Source: Octopus vulgaris (Eukaryota). Taken from it: 64,000 nt of DNA. Positions within the stretch are counted from its first letter, which is position 1. Every line of letters begins with the position of its first letter. A model generated the notes under the pieces. That model saw nothing but the letters and a program-made list of their open reading frames with translations. It was not told the origin of the DNA and ran no database searches. The stretch lies in assembly GCA_951406725.2 (NCBI GenBank), contig OX597830.1:248001-312000 (forward strand), in the 5' to 3' direction. Shown one piece after another: positions 9,020 to 56,094 of the stretch. The position numbers and the translations under genes are program-made.

Positions 9020-10260
9020 GTCTCACCTTAACTGTCTAGTGAAGGCGCGTAGTTTTAGCCCGCGCTTTTTCTAAACGACCGTCACCTGTCAGTCAGCGAA
9101 GCTGCTTCAGTCAGCTTGTCTCACCTAATGATGTTATTTCCCGTCGGCGTGTTTATGACTTTCAAGCCATTTTCGGTCTTCCCGCTTCAGCCATATATAG
9201 AAGCTGGCTTTTTCTACCGCCTCCTGTACTCTCCTTATTAGTTTACGCTAGAAAAAACAAATCTTCTTTTGAAAAGCATTGTCATTTTCTTTTCAATGAA
9301 GCCCCTAGCCCCCACTGTCAGGTGATAATATTCGACATTCCATCCCTGTTCTCTGCATTCTTCGATTAGCTTTTCATACCTCTTCTCCCTTCGTTCCTCT
9401 GCATTGCCGATGTTCTCTTCCCAAGGTACTGTCAGTTCTAGTAAAATTCCTATTCTCCGGTCTCTGTTCCATAGAACTAAATGCGGTCTTTTTGCTGTTT
9501 TTATTAGTGGGAAAATTACTTGTCTTTCCATGTCCGTGGCTACCTCCCAGTATCCCTTCCATCTTTCGTCCATCTCGTATACTTTACTTGTAGGCCTGGA
9601 TTTATAACCTTTTCCCCCCTTGTGGAAGTATACTTTCCTGCACTTTTCTACTTTTGGGTACTCTCCCCTATTGTACCTCTCGATCTTCTCCTTGAGTGCT
9701 GCGCTTATGACGCCGAGGACTTGATTATGCCGCCATGTATATCTTTCACGTGTCTAACCGTCGCTTTCTCTCCGCATCTACACTCATCGGTTGTTTTTAT
9801 GTTCCACCGGACTAAGTTCGCCGGTGAGGGTAGAACGTCGAAGGTAGACTTGATCAGGAAGGATGTTCTTGCTTGTTCCCAAGCCCAAAGTTCCTTCCAT
9901 GATATTCTGCGGTTGATCACATATTCCTCCCATCTCAGGCACTGTCCCTGTTGACTGCATTGCATCAAATGTACATTTCGCCTTTCTTCTTCCTCCTTTC
10001 TCACTTAGTGTATCACTGCCTCTTTCATCTCTTTTACACTGCTCTTGCAAAATGGCCTGAAATTTTGCGACCCTAGGCCGGTTCTAGCTTCTTGCGTCGC
10101 TCCGACTATATCTGCGTGCCTTAGTTTTCCGATCGCCCTCTTTACTGCCTCTTCCGCCTTCCATTTCCTCCCTGTTCGTACCTTTGGAGGGTTTTCCCGG
10201 ATGCTCTGATCTTTTGAATACCTTAGCATCATTACTGCCCTTGCCTTTCCTGCCTATATC
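9020..10260 (-). mobile_element. 5'-truncated HERO-like RLE non-LTR retrotransposon
   Basis: Peptides FLIKSTFDVLPSPANLVRW, CRCGEKATVRH (zinc knuckle, partly deleted), RYTWRHNQVL, RPHLVLW...ELTVPWEE (restriction-like endonuclease), VGARGF, AVEKASFYIWLKRE; frameshifted. Confidence 0.9.
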
Positions 10261-11107
10261 TAATACGATGGGATGGTCTCGTATGAAATGGCTGCTTCTT
10301 CAGAACTGATCTGGGCCTGATAGCAGCAAAACTAACAATATTCTTGTTTAAGCCAACATATATGTGTTAACAATTCATCTGGATTACCTTCATCGTTATA
10401 ATTAACATCTCCTCCCGCTCCTCATTCTCCTCCTCCACCACCATCCTCACCACCTCCTCCTCATCATCAGTAACATTGGTAATATTAATGGTAGTAAGTT
10501 CCTCATTGCCAGCAACACAGCTATCACCACCATGACGACAACCACCACCGCCGCCGCTATTGACGACAAGGATGTGATTCTATGAATGGCCTTTACTAAT
10601 AAGGATATTCGCATGATTAGACAAAGATTTTACCCAATATCTTCCTATATTGGAAATACATAACTATCGATGACTAAATTGAAGTGGGTTACTGCTGCTG
10701 CATTGGTGGTGGTAGAAGTAGTAGTAGTTTTCTTTTCTGCGTGGCCAAGTCCACCATGGATACATGACTCGTTAGTGTGATTTTCTAGATTCCAACCTGG
10801 TTAGTTTGTTGATATTAATGAGAACACCTCTTGCTAGAAACCAGAAAAACAAGTGTTAGTAGTGACAGATTCATCGTTGTTTTTATTAAACTTCCCCCTT
10901 GCCTTGCAGATGGCATTGACCCAATTAACACAACAACAGGGATGAAATCGATACAGAGTGTCTTTCTACACTGCCAAAATATGAGTAAAGGTGGGCGGAT
11001 ATTTTTTTTACACTCTCGTGGAAAGGAAGACGTCAACAGTTGCAATGACGGAAGTTTCATTATAGACTTTGAATCATTAATGTAGTTTACTACTACTACT
11101 ACTACTG

Positions 11108-11148
<41 letters not shown>

Positions 11149-11214
11149 GGTGCTGCTGCAGCTACTACAATAACTACTACTGCACGTACGAACCAACCCA
11201 CAAGCTCAGCACAA

Positions 11215-11245
<31 letters not shown>

Positions 11246-11396
11246 GACATGAAACTGGTATATAGGACTATTTGTGACAGGTGTACTTCAGTAAGAAAAG
11301 CGGTGTCGTATAACACTAAACGGCTGCTAGGGCTTTCAACAGAGTAGGTTCCATCGCGATCGTTTTGGTTCGAATTTCCGTCACTTCGCTTTGAAC

Positions 11397-11470
11397 CAGT
11401 GGTTCTCAACTGGGATCCATATGGCCGTTGGAAATCCGTATGGCCGTTGGGGATCCATATGGCCATTAGG
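11397..11470 (+). mobile_element. hAT-like terminal fragment with three ~19-bp subterminal repeats
   Basis: CAGTGGTTCTCAAC (Charlie/hAT-type TIR start) followed by GGRATCCRTATGGCCRTT x3; no partner TIR seen. Confidence 0.5.
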
Positions 11471-11588
11471 TGTTCATAAAAGAAACGTGTTCAAGGCGAT
11501 ATGCTGTGAGTGCAACCCTAAACTGCATGATTGTGAAATCATCTTCCAGCTGTTCGTCTTCTCTCTCTCTCTCTCTTTATATATATAT

Positions 11589-13377
11589 GAGATTAGACGA
11601 ACTTGTAAGGTGGTCAAGGATGCGATTTAGAGCAAAAAAGTCGCGTAGTCTGACATTTGTTAAGGGAGTGCAGAAAGAATTTAAATTTCGAATATCTGAA
11701 GAAAGCATTCCAACAGTCAAGGAAGAGCCCGTCAAGAGCTTGGGACGAGTATACGCTGGAACATTGTCAGACAGAAGTCGTGGGATTGAAATTATGAAAC
11801 AGGCCGAGGCTGGGTTATCAGCGATTGATGTTTCGAAGTTACCAGGTAAATATAAAATTTGGTGCTTGCAGTTCGGCTTGTACCCGCGACTTGCGTGGCC
11901 ACTTTAATATACGAAGTAGCATTGTCACGAGTTGAAAAGATTGAACAAAAATGTAATGTGTTCATTAGAAAGTGGCTATGTCTACCTCGTATGTTGAACA
12001 GCTCAGCTCTTTATCGTAAAAGAGGTTCGTTGCAGTTACCAATAGCATCAATAGTCGAAATATATAAGTTGGGGAAGATACGGACGGTCATGATGCTGAG
12101 AGAATCGAAGGATATGGAAATCAGGCGTAACCCACCAGAGGTGAAAACAGCCAGGAAGTGGAAAGCAGAAGCAGAAACTGACAACATCTTGTCTTCTCTT
12201 ATACACAGAGATATGGTGAGAGCAACGCAGAACCATCGGAAAGGATTTGGTTTTGGCGCAGATCAGTTCAGACCGTTTGCAAGCATGATGCCGTGTGAAC
12301 GCAGATCTGTTGTTAGCAACAGCGTCAAAACAAGAGAAGCAGAGAGAAGAGAGCTTCATTTGATCCGATGTGTTCATCAAGGTCAGATGACGAGATGGGA
12401 AGAACATGTTGTTGAGAGGAAGATAAGTTGGGATGAGATGTGGAAGTGGACGACATCTCGGCTGAGTTTCCTGATTCGTTCATCTTATGATGTTTTGCCA
12501 TCACCTACGAATCTAGTAAGATGGAACGTCTTAGAGAATGACATCTGCAAATGTGGAAAAATCGGTACATTAAAACATATTCTTTCCAACTGTTCATTAG
12601 CATTGAACAGGTACACATGGAGGCACAACTTGGTCCTTAAGGTTATCTTCAATGCTATAAAGAACCAAATTCATCTCAACAACACTGAGGAAAAATCGTT
12701 AAAAGTACCATCAAGAGAGTTCATTACCTTCGTGCGACCAGGTCAGCAGATCCGTTTCAAGAAGAAGACCAAGAAACTTCCTGAGAAAAATGAAAAGTGG
12801 AACGGCTATTGGGAGGTAACTGCAGATTTACCTGGGTGCCAGGTTTTCTTTCCCATCCCAGTTTCGAAAAAACCAGATATTTTGATGTGGTGTGAAAGAA
12901 AGAAAGTTGTAAATATAGTCGAGCTAACGGTTCCTCACGAAGATAATTAAACTGTTATGAAAACCTCCTCGAGGAATGTGAAGACGCAGGCTGGAAAGCG
13001 GAACATTTTCCTATCGAAGTCGGATGTAGAGGGTTTGTAGGACACAGCGTGAGACGACTGTTGTTATCGTTAGGCCTAACTCATCGTAAAGTCAATACCA
13101 CCATGACTGATATCCAATCTACAGTGGAGAAGGCTAGCCACTGGATTTGGTTAAAAAGAGACGATGAGCAATGGCTAGAAGTATATTGAGTTCTTCATAA
13201 CCAGCTGATCTAGCAAGCAGGGCCTCATATCAGTGAGGGGGGCCGGTGCGCATTGATGCCGTCGAGAGGTAGGCCCCGAAACGGCGCGCATTCTCTCCTG
13301 ATGACCCCATACACTTGCTAGCTTCCGATATACGGAGCTTTTAACTGGTAGCACTTGCATGTGCAAGTTGTTTGCAA

Positions 13378-20316: not shown

Positions 20317-21900
20317 AAACTTAGATAAACTTAGATGTGTTTCGACCAATGATTGGTCCAGGCCATGTCTAACTTAATAGCACCACCTGATAGGATTATT
20401 TGAATCCTGTTTAAGTCAAGTTTTGTTTATGGTCCATTCAATTAGTGAGTTTTTGTTGGGTGAGTTGTATCCAATTATGGGTGGCTTATCTGGTATTCCT
20501 TGAAAGAATCTATCCAGACTCCGTTTAGAGTTGATGGGATCCCCTTCCTCTTTGATCTCTTTCGGGACAATGTTAAATAGGGCAGGGCCTGTTGAGGAAA
20601 AGAAATTATGTTGTAGTGTACATGTATGCTGTGATCTTGAATTGGGCAGGGGACGTATGGCCCGAGGTCCCAGTCTTGGATGAACCTTGAAGATAATGTT
20701 CAGGTCGTTTGGGCAAAGATGGCGGTATATTCTCCACATCGTACAAAGACATGTAAAGACATCGTACACGGCGACGCTGAAGAGAGTAGAGTTTCAAGGC
20801 TTTAAGGCGATCCCAATAATCGAGAGCAGCCATGCCTTCGATTCGATTAGTGAGTGCCCTCTGGGGTGATTCAATCCTCGAGATGTTTTGTCTTGTAAGG
20901 GGAGACCACAGTGGGCAGCAGTATTCGAGGTGTGGCCGTACAAAGGAGGAGAAAAGTGGTATGGTGACACCTTGTTCTCTGGACCGGAAAGTTCTTAAGA
21001 TCCAGGAACTCATCCTACAGCTATATCGACCTTCTTGTTGATGTGTGCACTCCAACTGAGATCGTCATCAACAATTACACCCAGGTCTCTGATATTGTCA
21101 GAGGCTGTGAGCGGTTCCCCTGAAGGAAGAGAGTATGGCTATTTTAGTGAGGAATTTCTTCCAAAATGCATCAACTCAAATTTTCCCTCGTTCAGTTGTA
21201 TTTTGTTTCTGTCTGCCCATTGAATCACAGCATATAGATCAGACTGGAGTTGAGTTCGGTCTGCTTCTTCATTGACGATTTGCTGGAGCTTAGTGTCATC
21301 AGCAAATATTTTCACTTTGCAGTAATGTACGACACTGGAAAGGTCGTTTATGTAGATTATGAAGAGTAGCGGACCCAAGACAGTCCCCTGGGGGACACCG
21401 CTGGTGACTTTTGCTGGGCTTCAGTGGACTCCATCAACTACAACATGTTGTGTTCTATTCGCCAGGAAATACTTGATCCAGTGTAGAACTTTTCCACGGA
21501 TTCCAACATTTGCCAATTTTGAGAGTAGGATATTATAGTCTACCCTGTCGAATGCTTTACTGAAGTCAAGGTATATGACATAAGAGTTCGAACCTGTTCC
21601 CAAGGCTTTGAGTACATCTTCAATGTGGTGTAAGAGCTGCGTTAGACAGTCCCTGCCACAGCGAAAGCCATGCTGATTTGCATTCAGGAGCTTGTGGGTC
21701 TCCAGGAAGTCAGCTATCCTTGATCTTAACACTCTTTCAAACACTTTGATGATGTGGGAGGTGAATGAGATTGGGCGATAGTTGAGTGCGAGGGATCTGT
21801 TTCCCTGTTTGAAAACCGGGATGACTGACTGGGATAGAAACTGTTTCGGTATATAACCTGCGTCTAACGAATTTCTCCAGAGGTTGGTCAGAGGGACTGC

Positions 21901-21902
<2 letters not shown>
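20317..21902 (-). mobile_element. 5'-truncated CR1-group LINE (RT plus 3' tail)
   Basis: NYRPISFTSHIIKVFER, QHGFR, YLDFSKAFD, SGVPQGTVLGPLLF, FADDTK, HLEYCCPLWSP; 3' tail (ATCTAAGTTT)2; frameshifts; 5' end abuts (TA)n. Confidence 0.93.
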
Positions 21903-21956
<54 letters not shown>

Positions 21957-22144
21957 TTACATACATACACGCATATGCAATTAATACACCAGGATAAACA
22001 ATATTGTTTATATCAGTAAAGAACTTTGCGTACTCTTGTGACAGTTTCCGAGGATATAGTTCACCATTCTTAACCATTCAACTGGGCGATTCAGTGAATA
22101 AGAACCTATAATGACTTCTGGAAACTGCTCTAAGTCAAATTTAC

Positions 22145-22242: not shown

Positions 22243-22426
22243 TCTTTTAATTGTTTCAGTCATTTGATTACGGCCATACTTGAAGGGTTTTAGTCGAACA
22301 AAATGACCCCAGGACTTATTCTATCGGCTTCTCTAGTCGAACCACTAAGTTACGGGGACGTATACACACCGATACCGGTTTTCAAGTGGTGATAGGGGGA
22401 CACAAGACAGAAAGATACACACAGAC

Positions 22427-22472
<46 letters not shown>

Positions 22473-22605
22473 GAATGGCTTCTTTCAGTTTCCGTCTTCC
22501 AAATCCACTCACAAGGCTTTGGTCAGTCCGAGACAAGTTGCCATGCAGTGAACCTGAACCATGTGGTTGGGAATCTTGCTTCTCCCCACGCAGCCATTCC
22601 AGCCC
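22243..22605 (-). mobile_element. tRNA-derived SINE, diverged uninterrupted copy
   Basis: Homologous along its length to 48054-48427 plus 56057-56094 (GTTTCAGTCATTTGA..., CTAAGTTACGGGGACGTA, TTCTTTCAGTTTCCGTCT, CCATGTGGTTGG). Confidence 0.9.
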
Positions 22606-25655: not shown

Positions 25656-27127
25656 ATGGCGTCGTCTTTGTCAGCGAGTCAACAAGAGAGGGAAGTGAGA
25701 GGAGATGTAGAACGCGAAATTGTCTTCCGTCTTCTCTCTCACCCACTCACTCTAGATGTAAATGATAGTGGTATTAGCAGTAGGAGTAGCAACAGCAATG
25801 ACAACAATAACAACCATACTGGAAGTGTCATGGGTAATGAGAATTCGATCAAGGAAGCACGAAATATAACTAGTAGCAGTCAATTGTGCAAGGGAGATGA
25901 TGATTCCCCCACACACACACACACACAAATCAGGTTCAAATATAAATAACGTTCCCTTCGCAGAAATTACAAATAAGTTTGAAATTATGTCGTTAAAGGA
26001 TAAGGAAGAACATTTAAAAGAAGCTGAGACGATTATAAGACGTGAAGAAAGAAAGTTCACACTAAATGTGCCTCAAAACTTGCTAGAGGCAATCTAAAAA
26101 GAAAAAGAATCAGTCATGTACAGATGACACTCCATGAAAATTAGACTGGAAAAAATACCATCAGATCAAGTCGAGCTCTGCGTGAAAACTATATGGGGAA
26201 ATGTCAGCTTTGTCTGCCACACCCCAAAGTTCGGCTTCATCAAGGTCATATTCCAGTCGGAATCACTCGCACAAAAACACTCAACTGTCCCATTAAAAAC
26301 GGAGGAGTTCGCTTTAATTCCCATCTATCTGGAATAGAAAGTGATCCGAATAAAAATAACATTCCATCAGAAATTGATTTCTGGTGAGTACTGAAAGTTG
26401 TAGTACTGAAAGATCCTAGAAGCCTCCTAGAAATCCAAAAAGGTAAACTGGGTGGAGCAGGGTCGGAAATTCTACTGCAGGTAATACCAAAACTGTAGAG
26501 AAAATTCCCGACATAATAGAAATCCCTGGCGGTCAGCATCTGCAGGTAATCGTGGAAGGAAGAAGGCCAAAATACTACTTCTGTGGTGATTCCGGTCACG
26601 TCAGGTTCTATTGTCCGAAGGAAAGAAAGAAAAGGGGTAAAAAATGAGCCGCATCAACCACTAACGCCACTACAACCACAACAGACAACACAACAAGAGC
26701 AGCAGCAGCAGAAACAACAACGACACCTACAGAGACAACTGGACACAACAGTATCCAGAAAAACCATTTCAGCACCGGCAACTGCTGCAGCGACCACAAC
26801 GGATGGGGTGGAAACGACTGCTGAATGTCAAGCAGGATACAGACCAACATCAGCAACAACAACAGCAACAGGGAGCTCCCAACCAAAAATAATAACAGCA
26901 CTATTAACAACGCCAACAGTAAAACAAATACCTCAGGAAACCCCTCCCCTATTCGGACGACGAAAACGACGGAAATAAGTAGGACCAGGCATGGCGAACA
27001 GTCACACGAAAGGGAAGGAAAAGACGGAAGAGCAGATATGATAACCAGAAAAAACAAAAAACACAAAAAAAAACAGGCAGAGAAAATGGAGGAGGAAACG
27101 AACAGCACACCAGGCATAAACCCACCT

Positions 27128-28515: not shown

Positions 28516-30680
28516 TATACATGTCTTCTGTGCAAGCCGTATGCCAGAAATATGTCCCAGAGCACAAGGCCAAAACAAATAGGAGCAAGATTCCAAGAGA
28601 TAGGAAGATCCTCATGAGACGACGGACGAAGGTTGCAAATCGTCTCAACCAACATCCCAAAAGTAGCGAAACGTCCCGCCTAAAAACAACACTGATGGAG
28701 ATCGAAAAAAGGCTGCAACAATCCTATGTGAAAGAGAAAGCAGACAAAGAAGCCTGAGTTATAAAAAGCATTAAATCAAACCCAAAGGCCTTCTTTCATT
28801 ACGCGAAAGAAACAGTCTCAGTACACTACAAGATAGGACCCCTCCTCCAAAAGGATGGCTTCCTCACAGACAGTCCAACTATGATCAGTGAGATGCTGAA
28901 TGACCAGTTCAAAAGTGTCTTTACCACCCCGTTAGAACATAGACAAGTGAACGAACCAGTGGACTTCTTTGCCGTCTCACCTATAACCAGCGAGAATGTA
29001 TTGACATTAGCGAAAAAGATGTCCTACTAGCCATAGATGAAGTGGACACAAACTCAGCTGCTGGTCCAGACGGTTTCCCAGCCATCCTCCTCAAAGCGTG
29101 TAAGCATGCCCTGGCAAAACCCCTCAAGATTCTCTTCCAGAGCCTTCTTGCGAATGGCAAGCTGCCAAACAAGCTGAAGGAGGGAATAATATGCCCAATA
29201 CATAAAGGGGGAAGTAGAGCAGATGCCCAAAACTATAGGCCTATCTCTCTGACTTCACACATCAACAAAGTCATGGAAAGGATAGTCAGAAAGAAACTAA
29301 TCGCATTCCTTGAGGAAAATAACTTGCTGAGTGATACCCATCATGGTTTTCGACCAGGTAGGAGCTGCCTGACACAGATCTTACAACATTATGACTGGGT
29401 GTTGAGACAGTTACTCAACAAATCAAATGTGGACGTAATCTACCTTGATTTAGCAAAAGCTTTTGACAAGGTGGATGATGGTATGATATGCCACAAACTG
29501 CGTGACCTCGGCATTGCTGGAAAACTTGGAGTGTGGTTGCATGACTTCCTGAAAGATAGGAGTCAGGCAGTAGTGGTTAATGGAGCCACCTCTATGAACA
29601 CACAAATAGTGAGCGGTGTTCCACAGGGCACTGTCTTGGGACCACTGCTTTTTATAGTGGCCCTCTCAGATATACTCTCAAATGCACGGATAGCCACTCT
29701 GGCCAGCTATGCAGACGATACGAAAGTCTCGCAGAAAATACAGAACCCCAGCGATGTTGCACACCTGCAGCAGGAGTTGGACTCAATCTACAGATGGGCT
29801 GAGGATAATAATATGCAGTTTAATGCTGAAAAATTCCAGGCCCTGCGCTACCAGTATCCAAAACTTACAGGATACACCGGTCCATAGGGAATTTCAATCC
29901 CAGAGCCTAAGTCTGTGAGGGACCATGGTATCGACATGAGTGATGATACCTCTTTCCAAGTGCACATTACCAGGATGGCGACAAAGTGCAGACGACTGGC
30001 TGCGTGGATCCTAAGAACATTCAGAACCAGAGATAAGGAAACTATGATGGTCCTCTGGCGGACATTCGTCCTCAGCCACCTGGATTACTGCTCACAGCTA
30101 TGGTCATCCACCAGTGTAAAATTAACAGCGGACCTTGAAGCAATCCAGAGAAGATTCACAAAGAAGATCGTCTCTTTGCAACAGCTCAGCTACTGGGAAA
30201 GGTTTAAACAGCTAAGACTCTACTCCCTGGAGAGAAGACGGGAGAGGTATGCAGTAATATATATCTGGAAGATCCTGGAAGGAATTGTGCCAAATTTTGG
30301 CATTGTAAGCTACACCAATGCTAGAACAGGACGACACTGCATAGTGCCAAAGATCCCAGCAATGCCATCACGCTTCAGGACCAGCTTCTGCAACAGCCTG
30401 GGTTTCAAGGGCCCACAGCTTTTTAATATTCTCTCAAAGAGTCTGAGGGACTTGCACAAAGTAGATGTAGCGGTTTTTAAATCAAAGCTGGACATCTTCC
30501 TGTCAAGAGTCCCAGATGAACCTGCCTCACGGCAAGAGGTGCAAATGAGAGTAGCTATATCAAACTCCAGTCTTCACCAAGTGCCACATATTAGACGAGG
30601 TTCGTCGTAATAACAGTGTAGCATAAAACGGCGGTGCATCAGCATGGCCGCAGCTCTGAGCTGAAACTAGAAAAAAAAAA
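28516..30680 (+). mobile_element. 5'-truncated CR1-group LINE with complete RT and 3' end
   Basis: ORFs 29042-29887 (NYRPISLTSH, YLDLAKAFDKV, SGVPQGTVLGPLLF, YADDTK) and 29915-30610; 3' tail GGCGGTGCATCAGCATGGCCGCAGCTCTGAGCTGAAAC plus poly(A). Confidence 0.95.
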
Positions 30681-30689
30681 GTTAAAGTT

Positions 30690-32459
30690 TTGGGTTATTC
30701 AGAGCATTATTAAGAAGAATATTATAACAAAAGGATAGAAATTCATGAATACTTTTGAATATATGCCAAACTTTTACCACGATAGAGGGAGGAAAAGAAA
30801 TTATCCAGAAATAGTTTAATATTTATACATATCGTACACTTAAATACTAACTCATCAGATGGTAGCTGTGAATGCTGATTAATTGGTATATACTGGTATT
30901 AATAAAGGAGTTTTGAGGTAAAAGGACATGCTAATTATATATTAATAAAATTTTAATCTTAGCAGTGTTTGTTTTAATAGTGAATATGCCAATATAGTTG
31001 TATATAAGCTAAGTATGAATTTATAGAGATACAAAAATTAGATTAATTTTATAAATAAATAAAGGCTAACTATAAAATAATAAAGAAATAAAATAAAATA
31101 ATCAAGTAGGGCGGAACATCGTAGAAAAGGAAATAAAATAACTTAATTACTAACACTATGGTAAAGTATATGTAGCTTATTAACACCAATAGAGAAGAGT
31201 TTTAGAAAAAGTATAATAATTCAAAATATATTAGACTAAAAATTATATATTTACTTATTTAGCTAATATCAATAAAAGTCTGATGTCTGGTATCAGCTAA
31301 AGGAATATTTAAGCTATGGAACAATCATATTTTACAATAATCTTTTTTTAAAAACTAAGGGTTATATTATAAGTTTAAGAAGTTATTATTGCTACTCCCT
31401 ACATGATATTTATAGCTTCTTAGTGGCACTTGTTTAGGATGGTTATTCATATAAAGGCCCTTATCAATACTAAGATCAGGAGGGTAGAGCCATTTAAGAA
31501 AGATCACAGGAGGGTAGAGCCATTTAAATCAAGTAATTTCTAAAGATCATAGGGTAATCAAGAAGATTATTAAGAATGAAATTTTAACAAAAGGATAAAA
31601 TTTCTTTGAATATCTTGAATATATACCAAATTGTTTACCACAATGGAGGAAGGAAAAAGAAAATTGCAAAGAAATATTTTAACATTTATTTACTTATTAC
31701 TTATCTAAATATTAACTTATTATATGGTTTCTATGGAGATTAATCAATTGGATTTAACTGGTATTTAATAAGGGAGCAACTGAGCTTAAAGAACATGTTA
31801 ATTATATAATGATTTAATTAAATTGCACTATTTTAAGTTGTTGAGATACCGGTATTACCTTATATAAGCTGAGTTCGAATTAATAGGGTTACAAAGATTA
31901 GATTTAATTAAAATAATAATAATAATAATAACAATAAAATGATCAGTTAGGGTAGAGTCTCATAGAAAAGGAATAAAAACAGCCTAATCACTAAAAACCA
32001 TAATAAAATATCCATACCTTATTAACTTCAATAGCAAATATTTATAGAAAATGTATAATAGTTTAAGTATTATGATTTAAAAATTGTTAATTAACTTATT
32101 TAGCTTATTATAATCAAGACTGAAACCCGGTATTGGTTAAAAGAATAATTGTTGTTAAAAGGACATTCTAATTATATAGGTGAGAGAACAAATTTACTAT
32201 AAATTAGTTAAATTATAATATAAGCAGTTTAATTTTAAGTTGTGAACACATCCATATTGTTCTTTTATAAGCTACGTATAAATTTAAAGGGATACAAAAA
32301 TTTAGGTTTGTCTAAAGGCAATTATAAAGTATTAAGGATATAAAATAGCTTATAAAAGAGAAAAGGATATAAAATAGCTTAATCACTAGAATCATGATGA
32401 AGTATATATACAACTTAGTAACTTCAACAGAGAAGATTTATAGAAAATATGTAATAATT

Positions 32460-32460
<1 letters not shown>
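30690..32460. repeat. Diverged AT-rich tandem duplication/triplication of unknown origin
   Basis: Collinear motifs recur at about 30705-31310, 31565-32150 and partially 32160-32460 (TAACAAAAGGATA, GGACATG/GAACATG-TAATTATATA, TATAAGCT, TACAAARATT, AGAAAAGGA). Confidence 0.7.
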
Positions 32461-32497
<37 letters not shown>

Positions 32498-32499
<2 letters not shown>

Positions 32500-33760
32500 T
32501 GAAGGAAGGTAAAATATGCCCTATTCATAAAAGAGGTAGCAGAGCGGAGGCCAAGAACTACAGACCTATCTCTCTGACCTCACACATCAGCAAGGTCATG
32601 GAACGAATAGTCATAAGGAAATTAATCACCTTCCTTGAAGAAAGTGACTTGCTGCCTGACACCCAACATGGTTTCCGACCAGGAAGAAGCTGCCTAACTC
32701 AGCTCCTACAACACTATGACTGGGTGCTGAAACGACGGCTCAACCACTCAAATGTGGAAGTCATATATCTCGACTTTGCAAAGGCCTTTGATAAAGTCGA
32801 TCATGGAATGATACGTCACAAACTGCGTGATCTTGGCATAGTTGGAAAATTGGGAGAATGACTTTATGAATTTCTGAAGGATAGACGTCAGGTGGTAGCA
32901 GCCAATTCCATTAACAGGTGGCCACTTCCATTAACACGCAAATAGTGAGCGGTGTTCCGCAAGGCACTGTTTTGGGACCAATACTGTTCATAATGGCCCT
33001 CTCAGACATGCCCTCAGCCACGCAGAGAGCCACGATCACAAGTTATGCAGATGATACAAAAGTTTCACAGGCAATACAGAACCCTGAAGACACTAAGCAC
33101 CTGCAATGTGAGCTGGACAAAATATACAAGTGGGCTGAAAAGAAAAGCGTGCAGTTCAATGCTGAAAAGTTTCAAGCTTTATGCTATCAGCATGCAAAAC
33201 TAAATGCAATACCCAATGAATACACTGGACCTGGGGGGATTGCAATCCCAGAGGCACAATCAGTGCGTGACCTGGGTATTTACATGAGTGATGACGCAAC
33301 CTTTCATGTACATGTTGCTAAATTGGCAATGAAATGTAGGCGGCTGGCCGGATGGATTCTTAGAACCTTTAGAACAAGAGACCAAGACACCATGATGGTC
33401 CTCTGGAGGACACTTGTCCTAAGCCACTTTGACTATTGCTCTCAGCTATGGTTACCATCCAGTGTCAAGTTGATCACAGAACTTGAGGCGATCCAACGAA
33501 GCTACACGAAGAAGATAGCCTCTGTGCAGCATATAAGCTACTGGGAAAGACTCAAGAGATTAAGACTGTATTCCTTAGAGCGTAGGCGAGAAAGATATGC
33601 CATAATATACATCTGGAAGATCCTAGAAGGACTTGTCCCAGACTTTGGCATCGAGAGTTACACAAATGCCAGAACTGGGCGCCACTTCGTGGTGCCAAGG
33701 ACTCCAAATTTGCCATGAAGATGTAGAACAAGATACTGTAATAGCCTAGGCTTCAGAAGC
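32498..33760 (+). mobile_element. CR1-group LINE RT fragment (related subfamily of 28516-30680)
   Basis: KNYRPISLTSHISKVMER, YLDFAKAFDKV, SGVPQGTVLGP, YADDTK; 5' end abuts (TA)n; 3' end missing. Confidence 0.93.
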
Positions 33761-43569: not shown

Positions 43570-44400
43570 ATCTATATGAAGTTTGGCTGTATGTAATGTC
43601 TGTTTTCTCGAACAGCCGCTTCTACTGAGTACTGCTGTTGGTTTATTTCTTATACATAAAGGACTATAGCTTCAACTGCGTACTGCTTTTTGATTTACCG
43701 TAAGGTTTGTTATTATAATTACTGTTTAACTATTGTTATCACGTTTGTTGGTTCCTCGTAAGGGAAACGTTGTTGTGTTGCATTTGTTAAATAATTGTAA
43801 ACTGTAACCCTCCCCCTTTGGGAGAAGGATCTTTGGTTATTGTTTAAAAATTGAATTGTGTCCCTGTTTGGGGAAATTGACAATATTTTCACCGTTTACA
43901 CGGAAGCATTTTTGTTAGAATGCCTTCGATAGAAGAAAGTCCAAAAATGAATTTCGCTGTAACCGTCGGCGGGCGCGAACTCATTAAAATTAAAAGGGAA
44001 GAAATACAAACCTATTTCGGATTGATCACCGACAAAGATGGTGAATCTAGGATAACACCACCAAACGAAATAAAAAATTAAATTAAAGAAAAGACTATTG
44101 TCTATAAAGTAAACAATGTAGAGAAAAAATAGATTTGAACACCTGGAGGAAAGCACCATCGAAAAGTGTCTTGGTGCGACTATGAAAGATATTCGCCACA
44201 ATAGAAGCAAGGTTCGAGTCAACGGAGCGTGCAAAGTGGAAATATTTTATTTTTACCTTCATATCTGGGACGTAGGATGTCCCGGATAAAAATTAAAAAT
44301 GCACCCCCGGAAGTAGAGGTAGGCTGGATTGTAGCCATACTTCTACACAAGAGGAAGGACAAGATACAATTGATCGAAATTGCAAGAGACGGGCCTACAA
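43570..44400 (+). pseudogene. Tx1-clade 5' UTR plus degenerate ORF1 N-terminus
   Basis: NRFEHLEESTIEKCL and LFLPSYLGRRMSRIKIKNAPPEVEVGWIVAILLHKRKDKIQLIEI match RRFKHFEKSTIEKCL and LFPSYRGRRSSRVRIVEAPPDVDPVEVVAALLYKRADKIKILEV of the element at 48428-53862. Confidence 0.8.
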
Positions 44401-45001: not shown

Positions 45002-45514
45002 AAAAGCTACAAATAACCTAAATCACTTAAAAAGATTCTCACAAAGGCAAAATTGTTTTCTGAAATTACGGATGCAAAAGTAAAAAAATGTGGTAGACCA
45101 AACTGCGCAACATGCCCAAACCTTCTAGAAGGATCAGAATTCCGTTTCAAAGAGGGACAAAAATTCAAGATCACATCTAATTTTACTTGTGCTTCTGAAA
45201 ACATAATTTATGTCATAAGATGCTCGGGCTGCCACCAAAACTACGTAGGGTCCACGGGATTATCACTCAGACGCAGATGCACTCTGCATCGACAACAGAT
45301 TGCATTCCCAGAATACAGAATGATACCCTTTAGTGAGCATATTGAGAAATGTGCAAAGCAACTACTACCAAATTTTTTAATCTTTCCATTCTATCAATGT
45401 GCTATTGGAACACCAACACAAATTAGATTAAACAAGGAAACATTCTTCATTGAAAAATATAAGCCTGAACTTAACCATCCTAACATCCTTATACAGAGAA
45501 ACTCATCTCATTAA
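45002..45514 (+). CDS. GIY-YIG endonuclease domain of a Penelope-like element (5'-truncated, open frame)
   Basis: CGRPNCATC zinc-finger-like linker; FTCASENIIYVIRCSGCHQNYVGST; RRRCTLH; RLNKETFFIEKYKPELN. Confidence 0.85.
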
Positions 45515-48053: not shown

Positions 48054-48427
48054 ACTCTTTACTCTTTTACTTGTTTCAGTCATTTGACTGCGGCCATGCT
48101 GGAGCACCGCCTTTAATCGAGCAACTCGACCCCGGGACTTATTCTTTTGTAAGCCTAGTACTTATTCTATCGGTCTCTTTTTTGCCGAACCGCTAAGTGA
48201 CGGGGACGTAAACACACCAGCATCAGTTGTCAAGCAATGCTAGGGGGACAAACACAGACACACAAATACACATACATACATATATACGACAGGCTTCTTT
48301 CAGTTTCCGTCTACCAAATCCACTCACAAGGCATTGATCGGCCCGGGGCTCTAGCAGAATATACTTGCCCAAAATGCCACGCAGTGGGACTGAACCGGGA
48401 ACCATGTGGCTGGTTAGCAAGCTACTT
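48054..48427 (-). mobile_element. tRNA-derived SINE, body and 3' part (split by Tx1 insertions)
   Basis: B-box-like GGTTCAGTCCC; CR1-type tail GGCGGTGCTCCAGCATGGCCGCAGTCAAATGACTGAAAC plus (AAGAGTA)n; continues at 56057-56094. Confidence 0.93.
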
Positions 48428-48655
48428 TATTTCATATAATTTGCCATTTAGGCATTTACAAAGAGGGGACAAACAAGGACAGACAAATATAAAGGGTGAA
48501 GTAGCTTAACACAGTTACAATTTTCGAATGAAATTACGGATAAGATTATAAACAATGAATTTTACGAAGGCAATGTTTAAAAATATTAATGATCATGTCG
48601 AAGGACGGACACCCAGCCATCCGGGTAGAACCTTTACTTTCTGATCCGGTCACAC

Positions 48656-51600
48656 TTACCTGGTGCCAAACATACCCATCTTGTATGCCACAGGCTTCCA
48701 TCTTTTCACAAACATATCTCGTGACAGACACCTCTTCTCCAGCCTGATTTTGCTACTGAGGTGGTAACTAAAAAAGTTAATCAACCCCTGGCCGGAGACA
48801 AAGGTGCCTGTCATTATACCTTTCGTACGCGTCTTCCATACTGTTTCTTTCAGTATGGCTACTACACAGAAAAAACAAGCCTTTCTTTCCCTGTTAAGGA
48901 AAGGGGGCGGCACAATCTCGATGATAGACTCAGCTGATAGCTGTACTCTTCCCATCACTGACAACAGTTGTTCTACAAAAGCTATCAGTCCCGATAACTC
49001 CGGACACTCCACGAATGCGTGCAAGACGGTCTCCCTATCCTGCTCACATCGCGGGCATGTCGGCGAGACGGCACTACCGTGCCTTGACAGCTTGTCGCGA
49101 ACAGGTAAAGCCGCACGGAAACACTGCCAGGCTAAGGATTTCTGGTAATTATCCAGATACCCCGGCCCGAACGTCCTCCGGAACAGGTTGATCAACTGAT
49201 TTTCATCGTAGCCCAGGGTCTCCCCCAAGGCGTCTTCGGACTTAATCTCCACTAACCCGCTATAGAAATCCGTGGTGGAACTCCTGTTGCCGGCGTTGCC
49301 CACCCGAGATAGTAGCTGGAGCGCCTGACGGCACTCCAAATGCCATTCACTCAGTTTAGGTCTCCGCTTGATCCATGCACCGATGTCCGTTAGGGATGTT
49401 AACTGGGGAAGGTAGAACCGGACGTGCGGCGACCACACCTGCTCTCCATCCAGGTAAGGCCAGAGGTGCCTCAACCTTAACGCGAGTTTTCGCATCCTCA
49501 GCCAAGGCATCCCTAGCCCACCCTTTAGCGGTTTCTGGCAGCAGACAGAGCGCTTTACAAGTGGCTTTCCTCCTTTCCACAAAAATCGGAAAAGGATTCT
49601 CTCCAACTTGTTCAGCCACAAATCGGGGCAAGGCACCACGGTCAGACGGTAGGTGATTACTGATGCTATAAACATCTGCACCACCTCCGCCTTCCCTAGA
49701 AGGGATAACGCCCGCCCAGACCAGGTCTGGGTTAGAGCGGTCACCTTATTGGCCACCTCACTCCAATTTTTCTCAATCTGGAGGTCTGGCCCGAACCAGA
49801 CTCCGAGCAGCTTAACAGGACCTTCCGTCCAACGCCCTACGACGTTATTGGACGGCATCGGCTTGCCCCTCCTGGTGCCGAGTTGCAAACCGACCGACTT
49901 GTCCTTGTTAACCTTTGCTCCTGCACCGCCTCGTAGCTTTTTATGGCCTCTTCCACCACTGGAAGCTGGCCTTCGTCTGCCACGATGATGGAGGTGTCAT
50001 CCGCATATGCCGTAGCTCCTCTTCCACACCATAGATCATGCGGCGCGCCCCCTAGTGCCTCCAACTTCCGCAGCAAAGGCTCAAGAGCCAATACATATAG
50101 GAGCGAGGACAGGGGACACCCTTGACGAACTGAACGCTCGATCCTGAACGGCTTCGAAAAGGAACCGTTCACCTTGACTACAGACTCGATGTCGCTATAC
50201 AAAGCAGCGATCCAACCTCGAAAGGTCGGGCCTAGGCCAGCCTCTCCGAGGACCGCCGCCAGGTACCGATGGTCGACCCTATCAAATGCTTTGGACTGGT
50301 CTAAATGTACCAGTGCTCCCCCTGCGCCAGAAAGCTTCCCCACCCTCTCTAAGGAGTAGCGTATAAGGTGGAGATTGTCGTGGATCGTTCTGCCGGGGAT
50401 AGCGCACGTTTGCGCTTCCCCGACAAGTTTGTCCACGACCCGCGCCAACCTTTTTGCTAGCACCTTGGCCAGAATCTTTAACTCTGTGTTTAACAGAGTT
50501 ATGGGCCTGAAGTTCCCTATCTCGTCCCCCTTGTTCGGGTCCTTCCTGATCAAGGTCACCGCCCCCCGGCTCGCAGACTTGGGAATTCTCCCATTCTGCT
50601 GCCAGTTGGCGTAGACGCTAGCCAGCAGGTGCCCGAACAAGTTTGGCATACTTCTATAAAATTCATAGGGCAGACCATCGAGACCCGGCGACTTCTCCCC
50701 GGGGCACTTGCCCAACACCTCGATTACTTCCTCGGCTGTGATTGGCCCTTCACAGTACTCAGCCTCTCGTGTCGAGAGGCGCGGGCCACCAGACAGGAAG
50801 TCCCTAAGGGCCTCACCATGATCCAGCGTCCCGCACCTCCCGAACAACTCGGCGAAGTGCTTGTGGAGTGCCTCACACATCTCGTCCCGCTTCTTGATCG
50901 TGCATCCGTTTTCATCAACAAGAGACCCAATTGTGGCATCGTTTCCACGCTGTGTTTCTATCGTACGGGCCCATCCGGCAACATTAATTCCCTCACGGCC
51001 CAATGCTCGTACTTTAGCCCGGACTCTACATCCCTCATGTTTGGTTTTGAGGTGACGGTCTAATGCCGTTCTCGCCGCTAAAATGTGAGATGCAGAGCCC
51101 AACCTCAACGCCTCCTCTAAGTTCTTAACTAGTTGCCCTTCTATTCTAGCCCTATCTAGTCTTAGTTGTTTACTAAATCTAATGGACTCGAATCGAATGG
51201 CTCTTTTGAGGGTGAACCACCACCGGTTATTAACCACGGCTCCGGTTAACGCCCTCTGCACTAACACCTTAATCCGGATACGGTATGCCTCGCGTGTCAA
51301 AATAGACTTGTTCAGCTTCCAGTAGCCGGTTCCTATCTTAAGTGTGCTATCTATGTCCAGTCTACACGTGACCATTCTATGGTCAGTATAGGGCACCTGG
51401 ACGAGCTGTGGACAACTAAAACTAGACTTATCTCTAGTTCTTATCACTATCCTGTCTAGATAAGACTTGAACCTTCCGTCGCCACTCATCCAGGTCCACT
51501 CTGGGACGTTCGGATGGTCAAGTCTGTAACGATCTGCTAGCTGAAACCGCTTAAGCAGATCCACGAGACGTGAGTTCACTTTCCTATAGATCGAGCCAAC

Positions 51601-52056
51601 GCTATCGATGTGTACGTCAACGATAGCATTAAAGTCCCCTAATATCACTAAAGTCTTCGACGTCACGAGAAAGCCCTCTAGGCGCCGATAAAAATCAGTT
51701 TGGAAACCTCTAGCACAAGGTGCATAGAGTCCGATCAACCTGAAGGCCTTACTGCTGTATGTCACATCAAGGACGACCAGCCCACCTTCTGGGTCTACAT
51801 AGACTGTACTTGTCTGTAGAGCCAAGTCTTTACGGATCAGTACCACTACGCCCCCTCGCCCTCCGGTCTGGCCAGGAGACATGATTTTCTCGTAGCCATT
51901 CAGGAGAGGCGAGAAGGTTTGTAGGCTGTCCAGCTTGGTCTCTGTAGCAACCATCACATGTATATCATGTGATCTGAGGTCGTCGAGGAAACAAGCCTGC
52001 TTCCATTTCGAACTCAGACCACGCACATTTAAACAACCAAGGTTAAGCGAAGCCAT
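48656..52056 (-). CDS. Tx1 ORF2: APE endonuclease plus reverse transcriptase (one frameshift near 49925)
   Basis: LNVRGL, GDFN, SYLDRIV, TDH (APE); KSPGLDGL, NFRPITLLNTELKILAK, LDQSKAFDRV, VRQGCPLS, AYADD (RT); CPRC..ETVLHAFVEC. Confidence 0.93.
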
Positions 52057-52072
52057 TACAAAAGTAAAGGTT

Positions 52073-53473
52073 CTACTTACATTTCGTTGGAGAGGTGGGG
52101 GCCGACCTCACCACACGTTTGTGGGTCCCTTCTTTCTCCTCTTTCTTCAGATAGTCCGGCAAGTTCGCGATATGCCGGATGGCGTTTGGGTGTCTGTCTT
52201 TTAATTGTTTGAACGTTGTTTCCGCAATCCACGCGTGTCTATTTCGATCTTTGTATTTGTTGTACAGTCTTGCTGACTGATGCTGAACCACAATATCGTT
52301 TATGTATTTGTCTTGTGTGTCGAATTCAATTAATATGAGTTCATTTTCTTTTTTGTCTTCTTTTTCTGGGCCAGTTGAGCGGGATTTTTTTTCCGTGTCT
52401 GTGGTGTGTCTTTGTTTTTATTATTTTTTGTAGGGGATGTGGACGGGGATGCTGCACGAATTCTTTTACGAACTGGTGTAAATCCCCCCTCTGATACCTC
52501 CATGGTATCGTCTGTGGTAGCAATAGTTTGTTCGGTAGGCGCCGCAGTTTTTAGGGGGTGGGAGGTTTTAATAGTGTAGGGGTTTGTGAGTGCGAGGGCT
52601 GGGTTTTTTCTTCAGTCTGTTTTGGGGTTGGCACCGTAACAGCAGGAGTGGGATTTTTTGTTTTTGTAGGGGTAGGTGTGTTTGCAAGGGTAGGGACTTT
52701 TTTATTATCTGAGGGGCCTGGTGTCTGCGGTTTCTTTTGCTTGTCTGGACAGTCTACACGAATGTGGCCCTTTTTGCTGCAGGCGTAACAGGTGGGTTTT
52801 CGGCCTTCGACCTGTACCCTGAGGGCTACGTTCTCGCCCACGAGCACCCTCTCAGGAAGGAGCTGCAGGTCCTCCGCTGTTCCTTGAATTAATATATTAA
52901 TGTTACGCCCGAGCCAAAATCGAGGGGTAGAGCATGTTACTTCTAGTATTTTTATTTTGTCCGCCCTTTTATATAACAGGGCGGCCACTACCTCTACCGG
53001 ATCTACGTCCGGCGGGGCTTCTACAATCCTGACCCGGGACGACCTGCGTCCCCTATAGCTTGGAAAAAGTACCACCTCCTTGGTTTTTAGGGGGTTCACA
53101 GAATGCCCGCGGGCCATTTCTTCCCCGAGAAGCGGACATCCACAGTGCCATATGCCCGTCCCCTGGCGACGTACACGATGTTCTTCCAAATCGGGGACAG
53201 GCATTTCTCGATGGTGCTTTTTTCAAAGTGTTTGAACCTTCTGCTTTGTGGACAGAAAGTTTTAAACACTACGGTCCGCTTCTCGGTCTCCACGATACTG
53301 ACGGAGGGTGATATTTTAACATCACCACCCTCCTCTTGCATTCTTTTAAATAGCTCGACGAGCTGGTTGACATCGATGTCAATCTTCTCGGTAGCCACTG
53401 CGGCTACCTCAGAAAATTTTTTAACATTGCTCTCCTCAAGAGCACTACTTTCGTGAATAATTTCAACAGACAT
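52073..53473 (-). CDS. Tx1 ORF1 (gag-like, CCHC zinc knuckle), broken by homopolymer frameshifts
   Basis: MSVEIIHESS...RGRAYGTVDVRF / EEMARGHSVNP...VEGRKPTCYACSKKGHIRVDC, P/T-rich linker; ends at 52073, just before the ORF2 ATG. Confidence 0.85.
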
Positions 53474-53878
53474 TATTCTGTTGAAATTAGACAACACAAA
53501 AATTACGAATATTGGTTTCCCACAAAACTGGGAAACCTATAGAAAGTTTTTCTTCCAAAGTAGTTCAAAAAAGCAGTTCAAAAATTCCAATTCCCACCCC
53601 CATTCGGGGGAGGGGCACGAAAATAGTCTGGCAGGACTATATATAGTCACGTAAATAAAAAGCCACAGTGGCTAACAGTTCAACGGTAAGAAATTATTCA
53701 ATTATTTCCCGGTAAAACCGGAGAACAAGACAGTTCAGCAACGTTTAAAGGCAAATTTTCAGTAGTAGGAATTCAACAATTAACAACACAGCAAAACTCT
53801 TACCGGGAAGAAAACGCGTCCAAACCATAGTACGGTAGGCAAAGTCACTCTTCTGTCAGTGAGGTTAGCAAGCTACTT

Positions 53879-56056
53879 TATTTCAAAACATTTGCCATAA
53901 AGGCAGTACACAGATTAAGTTAGCTTTGCGGGCTGGACGAGGACATTAATGAGGTGAATGATAATGAAAGAAAGATGATAAGGATGGGAGAAGACAGAAA
54001 GCGCCCGCCGACTTTTGCTTCTCTAAAACATTGTTCTTTTTAAAAAAGATTAACACAAAACGAGGTATTAATCCTCTTACAATTTTTCAATTTTTGGACT
54101 TAAGTCCATTACTAATAATACATATCGTCCTCGAAATAGCTTGTGCCCGCGCCCTCCACCATCAACCACGCCTCCATCAGAACGTAGTCAAGTTCCGAGT
54201 TCGCGTCGCCCGGGACCAAGTTATAGTCTTCATTGAGCTCCTTTAGCCCTAGCGTCACGTCGAACGCCACGGCCTCCACAGCTACCTGCGGAGGCCATTC
54301 GGGGTCCTGTGTGAAGGCTAAAGGTGCTCCCTTGTAGTGCTCTTCCATCACTTTTTCAATTTCTCCTCCTCTATAGAAGAGGACCAATACATTCAGTTCT
54401 TTCGTTGGCGGCACAGTTTCCGCCAACGGTATTCCTTCTCTTGTCGGTGGCACAACCCCAACCGACGTAGTTCCGCGACATTCCGGTGCCACACTGACAG
54501 CCGGCAACGTCCCGTTTTTCTTCCTCTTTTTCTTTTTTTTCCCTTTTCAACTGAGGGAGGGTGCGTCTCCTCCGTGGCTGGAAGATTCGCCCTCCTCTCC
54601 TCATCCCTATTATCCTTTGGTGAGCACCCATTGTTGCTCACCTTCCTCTTCGGCCTCTGCTTGAGGAGTCCTCTGCTTTCTCGGCCGTTATCGTTCCCTC
54701 TTCTAGAGGGGTTTTACTTAACTGTTCCGGGATCCTATTTTGTTCCCGAGGACAGTTCTTCTTTATGTGGCCGGACTCCAAGCACCGATGACACTTAGGG
54801 GGGCGACCCTCAAGCATCACCGGGTACCTGCACCCGGCCATTTTCAAAAAATCTGGAAAAACCAGATTGGCTGATTGGGTCCACAGGGTCAAAACTGCTT
54901 TCGAGCCAACCCAAGCAGCCGCAGGAAGAACTTTTACATTGAGGAGCTTAGTTTCGCTGTCACCCAGACCCCGGCGGATAGTCTCCTCTATCCACTCGGG
55001 TTCTATGTCGGGTGGCAGTCCGCAGATCCAAGCTTTCATCAATTTCTTTTTTTTGTAAGTGGGCAGGAATAAGATTTCCTTACCCTCCCAGGGTTCGCTA
55101 GCAAATTTGCAAGCCTCTTCAGGGGTGTCAAACAGCAACCACACCGTTCCATATTTGACACCCCTGGAAATGAATTTAATTGTTGGCAAATACTCCTCCA
55201 ACTCCTCCTCAATTGCCGTCTTTTCGAATAGGGCGATGGTGTCAAGTGCCTTGGAGTAGGTTCTCAACACCACCGTCCTATCTTCACGGTCCTTCAACCA
55301 CTTTTTGGGTGGTATGATTTCCCACTCCAAAACTTTGTTATTTTTCATTGCCATGTTTTTTAAGAAATATATTCAAATTAGACTCAAAAGCAGGAAGAAA
55401 AAAGTTCAAAAGTCTAAATAAATTTGATAGATTTTTGAAAAAACAAAAAGGAGAAAGCACAACAGAAGGGAAGAAATTAACGGAAAGTCGCAATAAAGAA
55501 AAAACAAAAGGGGGGGGGGGTAAATGAAGTTCAAAAGAAAGTTAATAAACAGAAAAAACACAGCAAAAATATTCTGGCCTTGCGGTACTCCCGGCCTGGG
55601 TTGAACCTGGAACACCGCAACTGCAACACAACCTCCACAAAAAGGTCCGAAAGGTAATCCAATAGTGGCTTATTTTTATACTTTTCTTGCGAAGTACTCT
55701 GACAAGGGAATAAATTCAACAAATCCAAACACAGCACTGGCTACCGCCAACGGTGATTTTAACAGTAACTGTATTGAATTCTGAGGATACGCCCCTCCAC
55801 TGTTTTTTCTTTTTTTTTTTTTTTTTCAATGAACACAAAAACGGCAGCCGCCTAGCGCAGGCGAAATTGTCTCAGAGTTGGACACAACCTACTGAAATAA
55901 TAATTGGCACGCAATAAATTATGCCCAACTCACAATAAACAAAATCACTTACCTCGACAACTTTCCGTTTTTGGTCTTTTTTCTTTAGTTGGAAGGAGCT
56001 TGTTACTCACGTCCACTCTAGCTCAACAGGAAGCAACCGACTAACTGCGCATGTGT
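53879..56056 (-). mobile_element. ORF1-only Tx1-related non-autonomous element (~2.2 kb, HAL1-like)
   Basis: ~700-bp 5' UTR, ORF1 homologue, no ORF2; 3' end similar to that of 48428-53862; flanked by the same 16-bp direct repeat. Confidence 0.85.
54112..55354 (-). CDS. ORF1 homologue of the ORF1-only element (interrupted after aa 238)
   Basis: RTVVLRTYS, RGVKYGTVWLLF, FLPTY, GLPPDIEPEWI, VMLEGRPPKCHRCLESGHIKKNC; C-terminal segment 54112-54507 is in another frame. Confidence 0.8.
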
Positions 56057-56092
56057 GGTTAGCAAGCTACTTACCACACAGCCACTCCTGCG

Positions 56093-56094
<2 letters not shown>
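56057..56094 (-). mobile_element. 5' head of the split SINE (A-box region)
   Basis: GGCGCAGGAGTGGCTGTGTGGTAAGTAGCTTGCTAACC on the minus strand; matches the head of the copy at 22243-22605. Confidence 0.9.

Follow-up and report, generated by a model that had tools for sequence, protein, structure and literature searches.

An L1-superfamily LINE and ORF1-only passengers insert at one base of a tRNA-derived SINE in Octopus vulgaris

We analyzed a 64,000-nt stretch of the Octopus vulgaris genome (the window; GenBank assembly GCA_951406725.2, contig OX597830.1, positions 248,001 to 312,000) in which two retroelements, E1 and E2, lie one behind the other inside a tRNA-derived short interspersed nuclear element (SINE). 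E1 is a long interspersed nuclear element (LINE) with two open reading frames (ORFs), and E2 encodes ORF1 only. Copies elsewhere in the genome occupy the same site, and we regard it as virtually certain that this targeting is real. Our preferred reading of how it comes about, to which we give a probability of roughly 60%, is that E1 and ORF1-only passengers insert at one base past the A-box of the SINE head, with the site likely chosen by an endonuclease nick combined with pairing between element RNA and target.

Within the window, the 16-mer GGTTAGCAAGCTACTT occurs three times (Table 1), a number equalled by none of 100 shuffles, and no further match with up to three mismatches was found there, where 0.33 would be expected by chance. 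Read along the minus strand, on which both elements lie, the order is SINE head, 16-mer, E2 (2,178 bp), 16-mer, E1 (5,435 bp), 16-mer and SINE remainder. The outer SINE halves, aligned separately to natural uninterrupted copies (L255 and L258), overlap by exactly the 16-mer; in L255 the head maps to subject positions 26-61 and the rest of the SINE to 46-430. The interruption is 1 nt past the A-box and upstream of the B-box. The initial annotation had described this 16-mer at its three positions as bracketing two different elements in the same orientation, whose removal restores a contiguous tRNA-derived SINE broken between the A- and B-boxes, and the description is borne out in each part, the two ORF1s being only 28% identical. 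The three 16-mers are identical in the window because the subfamily of the recipient SINE copy matches the elements' own 5' tag. Contigs from four runs contain many joints spanning the window insert, which are uninformative on an empty allele because any other SINE copy yields the same joint. A diverged relative (66%) of the target SINE lies at window positions 22243-22530 on the plus strand.

The genome-wide distribution of the elements carries the case for targeting. Queries made from the 3' ends of E1 and E2 excluded the 16-mer, and each resulting set of 30 matches includes the window's own copy and three stacks; the target stands directly 3' of 30/30 E1 and 30/30 E2 matches fetched. Of 40 E1 and 40 E2 matches, 36 and 39 loci, respectively, were fetched at full length; the omissions were the window's own copies, a pair of short truncated E1 copies and a single member of an array. 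In each of the 75 fetched loci the target borders the element 3', and what lies 5' is a SINE head in 69 cases and a sister element in 6; one of the two truncated E1 copies (L002) has the head with a 2-nt loss. A pattern census of E1 counted 110 3' ends with non-G at flank position 14, and the target begins directly at all of the 100 that were listed, one of which departs after 7 nt. One off-site E1 copy (L141) was found by a separate pattern.

The related group as a whole has 1,212 hairpin-type 3' ends (775 + 366 + 71; control 0). The 775 that continue AAGTAG were in the SINE site or a stack in 30/30 fetched cases. From the 366, represented by the first 20 of 22 ends on contig C1 and judged by eye, 16/20 occupied the studied base, most of them in copies of an older SINE subfamily that has A at position 4; of the others, two were elsewhere in the SINE and two off site. 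The 71 with a non-G third base were the least uniform, as 30 fetched ends divided by eye into 13 on site, 11 off site and 6 from another family. Scaled from these samples, ~92% of group ends are at the studied base. This figure and that for the listed E1 ends both exceed the threshold of >20% of flanks of one type that is given in the available text of PMC4494074, and the heterogeneous flanks by which the initial annotation expected its proposal to fail did not appear in 60/60 fetched E1 and E2 ends, two of them the window's own.

Copies match the window elements at 96-100% over their length (92% over the 3' end for one E2 copy), whereas the flanking SINE parts are 90-91% alike on average, with 1 identical pair in 1,194, so that the insertions are independent rather than hitchhiked. 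The 100% identity of the last 150 nt of E1 is a product of the selection of copies and was not used as evidence. Two placements of other kinds were seen: one element (L208:6618) lies in the opposite orientation at a mirror-image motif of a SINE head with a mutated main site, and another (L203) at a second SINE site downstream of the B-box.

The target SINE has a tRNA-related head with A and B boxes, a short body and a repeat tail, and is present in high copy number. Its head aligns over the full length to the genome's tRNA genes, above all 200 shuffles, in 3/3 copies. As the 2.8-Gb genome holds 76,668 exact uninterrupted heads, at most ~1.5% of heads are occupied. The 8-mer core of the target occurs 208,931 times within the flanking-base limits of the pattern, compared to 91,365 for a reversed control, and among the first 100 core rows 19 were non-SINE by eye, of which only 1 had the full 10-mer. 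A recogniser of ~10 bp fits, whereas with one of 8 bp, insertions outside the SINE would be much more frequent than those of E1 are. On these counts a ~10-bp motif, mostly supplied by the SINE, is enough to explain the insertion preference, and SINE targeting here means sequence specificity for a SINE-supplied motif, rather than demonstrated recognition of the SINE as such. Against a background taken from the first 3 Mb of contig C1, E1 and E2 favor the SINE subfamily that matches their 5' tag (46/70 vs 30/100; p=5e-6) and avoid the A4 subfamily (0/70 vs 18/100; p=5e-5). Natural target variants number tens of thousands of copies each, and element families track them.

We considered the target SINE as a passenger of E1 and rejected this, as the E1 and E2 stretches of 40 loci are without a match to the 3' part of the SINE. 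The SINE that shares the E1 tail belongs to a different family. This second SINE (L073, L083, L084, L088, L215, L182, L201, L002 and others) has ~30 nt and a similar hairpin in common with the 3' untranslated region (UTR) of E1, and of 35 tails of its type, 9 continue into this SINE's own head sequence, and the studied 16-mer site follows none of the 35. It probably travels as the passenger of a sister LINE.

A role for RNA in site choice is suggested by a short segment of the 3' UTR. In E1 this is an exact 9-nt complement of target nt 1-9 and in E2 a near-complement (Table 1), and more broadly 3' UTR complements of 7-9 nt, covering target nt ~2-10, covary with the SINE subfamily that receives the element. 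Among 142 distinct ends, UTR A accompanies target T in 88 and UTR T accompanies target A in 7, with 2 discordant (one an internal deletion) and 45 unscorable on one side; the covariation has p=5e-9 by copies and p=0.014 in a cluster-majority table (9/0/1/3). A search anchored solely in the UTR found target A in 20, T in 1 and G in 2 of 30 T-type copies (7 unparsed), and target T in 5 of 8 A-type sisters (3 unparsed, all T by eye). Overall, this search paired T with A 20 times and A with T 5 times, with 1 discordant and 12 other or unparsed (p=9e-5). Complementarity along the SINE is highest at the insertion site (6.4 vs a mean of 4.5, sd 0.7). LINE-type tails have the segment 78-79 nt from their end, passenger tails 40-51 nt from theirs, and because its position differs in this way, it has switched at least twice. 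Target variants also differ between two sister passenger subfamilies whose ages are similar (87% and 89% pairwise), and off-SINE sites of both types (L282, L292, L298 and L300) keep the base that the segment predicts. The covarying segment thus suggests RNA-assisted targeting. Its simplest reading, by analogy with R2Ol, would be a stem that the UTR segment forms with target sequence in the read-through part of the RNA, while the end of that part pairs with DNA.

At the 5' junction, element and target both contribute. Among 14 informative differences between recipient and usual 16-mer within positions 11-16, 13 show the element's version in the 5' copy, and genome-wide, position 13 is T on 35/100 3' sides vs 8/100 5' sides (p=4e-6). 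The two flanking copies are hence not both recipient-derived, as they would be for a target-site duplication (TSD) of fixed length; in the 5' copy of the "16-bp TSD", target and element sequence are joined, the last 4-8 nt usually being element-derived. A true target duplication exists nonetheless, as variants at positions 7-11 are common to both sides at several loci (L086, L095, L080 and L103). Several other variants at positions 2-9 are found on one side only and may be later mutations. The initial annotation had weighed a TSD against a fixed element terminus, and each alternative accounts for part of the 5' 16-mer: its 3' part is element-borne, and the rest is duplication. Older families in the A4 subfamily carry the A4 version of the 5' tag. 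In 11 truncated copies the duplications are 6-17 nt by eye, and a fixed top-strand cut at the mirror motif, giving 13 nt, is not supported on that ground. About a quarter of joins have one extra T, more often if the recipient mismatches the tag (9/18 vs 6/38; p=0.011); inheritance of these junctions from donor variants was rejected, as they do not cluster on the E1 tree, itself weak (9 changes vs 9.9 shuffled).

Elements also accumulate at occupied sites. A sister element is upstream of 20/100 listed E1 5' ends (by eye), >10x the occupancy of empty heads, and mixed stacks reach five or more elements. In the L095 stack, each of the three junctions has the same private variant of the recipient, which shows that the insertions there were sequential. 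A preference for occupied sites could arise if the element promoter keeps chromatin open or if tandem transcripts are mobilised together. Long stacks at one site were likewise seen at L098/L120, L073/L117 and L119, including mixed arrays of three families, and at C1:223689313-223706788, where one E1 and seven E3-type ends ~2 kb apart are arranged head to tail.

We propose a stepwise mechanism that, in our estimate, stands an even chance of being right. It builds on a fixed 3' junction without poly(A), a common 3' hairpin and an AATAAA formed from the element end and target, all of which are observed. The transcript would read through into the SINE, and its target-like 3' extension would pair with the nicked bottom strand, from which reverse transcription would start exactly at the element end. 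For R2Ol, the available text of PMC6530143 reports that read-through RNA annealing to the target raises insertion. The 3' UTR segment may pair with the read-through target copy within the RNA; the covariation itself is observed. To judge from the element-following 5' junction, the RNA would begin inside target sequence, and the cDNA end would anneal to the top-strand overhang. Passengers would borrow ORF2p through the common tail. Each insertion rebuilds the site, and there the elements are seen to stack.

Several observations weigh against site choice of this kind. The main site is missed by an estimated ~8% of group ends, and no SINE head is present 5' of the truncated E1 copy L001. One passenger family, E4 (L119 and L193), is on target without a complementary segment within 330 nt. 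The covariation p values overstate independence because the clusters are related, and the E1 tree is poorly resolved, with 3/27 branches well supported. The E1 read-through fold alone is not significant (z=-1.5). Finally, the greater age of the T-type family (87% pairwise) means that its switch of subfamily could have come from a change in the endonuclease.

Targeting by protein alone, the mechanism proposed in the initial annotation, in which the APE (apurinic/apyrimidinic) endonuclease domain or ORF2p reads ~10 or more bp of the SINE head while RNA pairing tidies junctions and the UTR follows passively, is an explanation to be taken seriously, although we consider it unlikely. The available text of PMC4494074 states that targeting by Tx1-type elements is endonuclease-determined. 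Such targeting would accommodate the passenger family that lacks the segment, the copy at the mirror-image motif on the opposite SINE strand (L208) and the resemblance of off-site flanks to the motif. However, the endonuclease hairpin loop of E1 is of human-L1 length, rather than extended as in the chimera 2v0r, and passive tracking fails to explain repeated compensatory changes in the UTR.

A rather improbable alternative gives RNA the larger part, with the UTR segment pairing to the top strand and the read-through end to the bottom strand, so that the RNA programmes the site. The exact 9-nt complement of the top strand in E1, covariation that holds across families, the segment-predicted base at the four off-SINE sites and the different target variants of sister passenger subfamilies of similar age are all consistent with such a guide. 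The same covariation is nevertheless accounted for by pairing within the RNA, one family does without the segment and our literature search gave no precedent. If this alternative were true, the passenger guild would retarget a common ORF2p to new SINE subfamilies by single-base RNA changes.

The remaining alternatives fare much worse. As the site is within a tRNA-like head, an ancestral tRNA-gene target is conceivable, with SINE insertions as spill-over from tRNA genes. A search that scored 63 candidates nonetheless found the target motif in 0/35 tRNA genes and element ends at 0/30 tRNA loci (~8 isotypes), and no tRNA gene was among the fetched element flanks, so that a tRNA gene as the true target, which the initial annotation had left as an alternative, is very improbable. 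Clusters of tRNA-Cys, tRNA-Thr and tRNA-Arg genes were noted at L227, L232/L249 and L222/L223, respectively. Least credible of all is amplification of a LINE-plus-SINE composite as one piece with an inherited flank, which the same repeat at every flank and a possibly transduced stretch past the 3' end might suggest, as SINE flanks from different subfamilies differ by ~10% compared to 0-4% for the elements, 5'-truncated copies sit at the same base, many unrelated families use the site and L095 has its private recipient variant at all three stack junctions.

E1 is an L1-superfamily LINE. Its ORF2 has an N-terminal APE endonuclease (PF03372), a reverse transcriptase (RT; PF00078) and a C-terminal zinc-binding region (PF13966), and its best solved relative is human L1 ORF2p (E=1e-66), with R2 at E=2e-19. 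The nearest named relatives of ORF2 are in Argonauta (63%) and a cuttlefish (48%), and no named Tx1 reference was among the matches in three protein searches. Elements of the Tx1 clade have an ORF1 with a CCHC zinc knuckle, unlike the mammalian L1 type. A zf-CCHC domain is present in both the E1 and E2 ORF1s, the E2 match being below the Pfam cut-off, and placement of E1 in the Tx1 clade is plausible. Atlas look-alikes of the ORF1s, a lead only, are CCHC and ZCCHC3-like RNA-binding clusters (0.90-0.93). Compared to the Tx1L loop grafted in the chimera PDB 2v0r, the E1 endonuclease has a hairpin loop with two fewer residues.

With ~110 copies, the E1 family is young, as copies are near-identical (98.9-99.6% between the window copy and four copies compared, and 99.5% to its closest copies) and ORF2s are intact, an uninterrupted 1,133-aa ORF2 being found in 4/20 copies checked; the window copy is frameshifted in both ORFs. 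The 3' end is without poly(A) and has a tail with the hairpin TGCC-N5-GGCA, ending AATA, which becomes AATAAA once joined to target. The E1 leader holds a degenerate second target copy ~30 nt inside. Motifs resembling the downstream promoter element (DPE), called from the general consensus, are found at +28 from the second target A in several short-leader families (L210, L095, L093, L216 and L161) and at +57 to +59 in E1, E2 and E3 (window 53817-53821, minus strand). A split promoter may exist in which the target provides the start site.

E2, one of the two Tx1-related retroelements of the initial annotation, is a full-length member of an ORF1-only family with HAL1-like organisation, not a second autonomous LINE. 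In nearly all of 39 copies ~2.2 kb separates the junctions, without ORF2, and ORF1 is a single 414-aa frame in L086, L087 and L097. The family unit is ~2.24 kb, with the window copy short of one ~69-bp repeat unit. Given ORF1s that are 28% identical, E2 is not derived from E1, and their DNA is alike only in the last ~36 nt. More ORF1-only families and related LINE-type tails end with the same 3' tail, and at least five ORF1-only families coexist. The first 30 nt of E2 can fold onto the upstream target 16-mer with ~14 pairs including G-U (window 56020-56072, minus strand), a fold not significant compared to shuffles (z=-0.7). HDV-type ribozyme topology needs more than 11 nt between hairpin strands. 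A 5'-end ribozyme was accordingly rejected, as the strands of the E2 5' hairpin are 11 nt apart, too few for this type, and Rfam matches were only to microsatellite-driven microRNA. A different family with the same 3' hairpin (L179, L182, L187, L194, L196 and L201) is followed by (AAT)n or other AT-rich sequence, and twice lies just upstream of the head of the second SINE.

Table 1. Coordinates, within the 64,000-nt window, of the interrupted SINE and the two elements it contains
Feature	Position	Strand	Basis
5' part of tRNA-derived SINE head, A-box at 56074-56084	56073..56094	-	Sequence; alignment to natural SINE copies and tRNA genes
5'-most 16-mer: target duplication and element-borne 5' tag of E2	56057..56072	-	Motif scan, junction comparison
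E2, ORF1-only non-autonomous element	53879..56056	-	Comparison with other copies
E2 ORF1 (CCHC zinc knuckle), two frames in window copy, break near 54.6 kb	54112..55354	-	
E2 3' UTR segment complementary to target	53917..53929	-	
E2 3' hairpin TGCC-N5-GGCA, common to whole group	53893..53905	-	
Middle 16-mer: E2 3' junction and E1 5' junction	53863..53878	-	
E1, full-length two-ORF L1-superfamily (Tx1-like) LINE	48428..53862	-	
E1 ORF1 (CCHC knuckle), three frame pieces in window copy	52073..53473	-	
E1 ORF2 (APE endonuclease, RT, zf-RVT), frameshifted near 49.9 kb in window copy	48656..52056	-	
E1 3' UTR segment, exact complement of target nt 1-9	48499..48507	-	Sequence
E1 3' hairpin TGCC-N5-GGCA	48442..48454	-	
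Original target 16-mer of recipient SINE; makes AATAAA with last 4 nt of E1	48412..48427	-	
SINE 3' remainder: B-box 48386-48396, body, short-repeat tail	48054..48411	-	Sequence; alignment to natural SINE copies

Elsewhere in the window, fragments related to E1 ORF1 are at 44131-44396 and 26170-26617 (plus strand; 35-67% identity over short stretches). Other retroelement fragments are at 28943-30607, 32373-33715 (plus strand), 20609-22077 (minus strand), 9241-12947 and 45017-45511; three RT-like pieces among them match E1 ORF2 at 25-29%, and the remainder were judged by eye.

These results extend the known landing pads of site-specific LINEs to SINEs. They describe a community, made up of one autonomous LINE and several ORF1-only parasites, whose members use a single base in common, restore the site on insertion and accumulate there. 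Natural target variants make the relative shares of the endonuclease and of RNA-DNA pairing in the target choice of an APE-type LINE directly testable. If an RNA segment steers insertion, this bears on tools for RNA-templated gene insertion; the target itself is not a single safe harbour, consisting of ~100,000 sites that are probably harmless. A literature search found no SINE-targeting LINE, with Repbase, Dfam, subscription papers and the supplements of PMC4494074 outside its coverage. In its available text, the octopus repeat annotation (PMC13282606) reports 13 recently active L1-Tx1 families, and the words "target" and "nested" are absent from that text.

The closest parallels are in the Tx1 clade, for which the available text of PMC4494074 describes elements directed at DNA transposons, long terminal repeat (LTR) elements, U2 genes or microsatellites, and passengers arranged in tandem about a 16-nt TSD. 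In crocodilians, Tx1-Mar LINEs and SINEU-3 target Mariner-N4_AMi, Tx1-8_Crp and Tx1-4_AMi target LTR elements and Tx1-9_AMi targets Harbinger; Tx1L of Xenopus targets the Tx1D transposon, Keno targets U2, and Kibi and Koshi target microsatellites (PMC4494074). Like Tx1-Mar with SINEU-3, the octopus system combines an APE-type LINE and a non-autonomous passenger inside an abundant mobile element, with tandem copies around a 16-nt TSD and ~90% of copies on target. Unlike Tx1-Mar, it targets one base of a tRNA-SINE head, its passengers are several ORF1-coding families rather than a SINE, part of its 5' duplication comes from the element and its UTR carries a segment complementary to, and covarying with, the target. 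With Tx1L, Keno, Kibi and Koshi it shares a sequence-specific APE/RT LINE on multicopy landing sites, although the target class differs and the E1 loop is shorter than that of Tx1L.

Two further systems resemble parts of this one. R2, as the R2Ol data in the available text of PMC6530143 show, is aided in exact priming by a target-like RNA 3' end, as may hold for the octopus elements, and has a junction without poly(A); it differs in its restriction-like endonuclease and ribosomal DNA target, and no internal target-complementary UTR segment is described in that text. HAL1 (half-L1) of mammals is a non-autonomous L1-type element coding only for ORF1p, according to the available text of PMC5753468. 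E2 likewise encodes ORF1 only, but, unlike HAL1, it is site-specific, has an ORF1 28% identical to that of E1, shares with E1 only a ~36-nt tail without poly(A) and is one of at least five such families that coexist.

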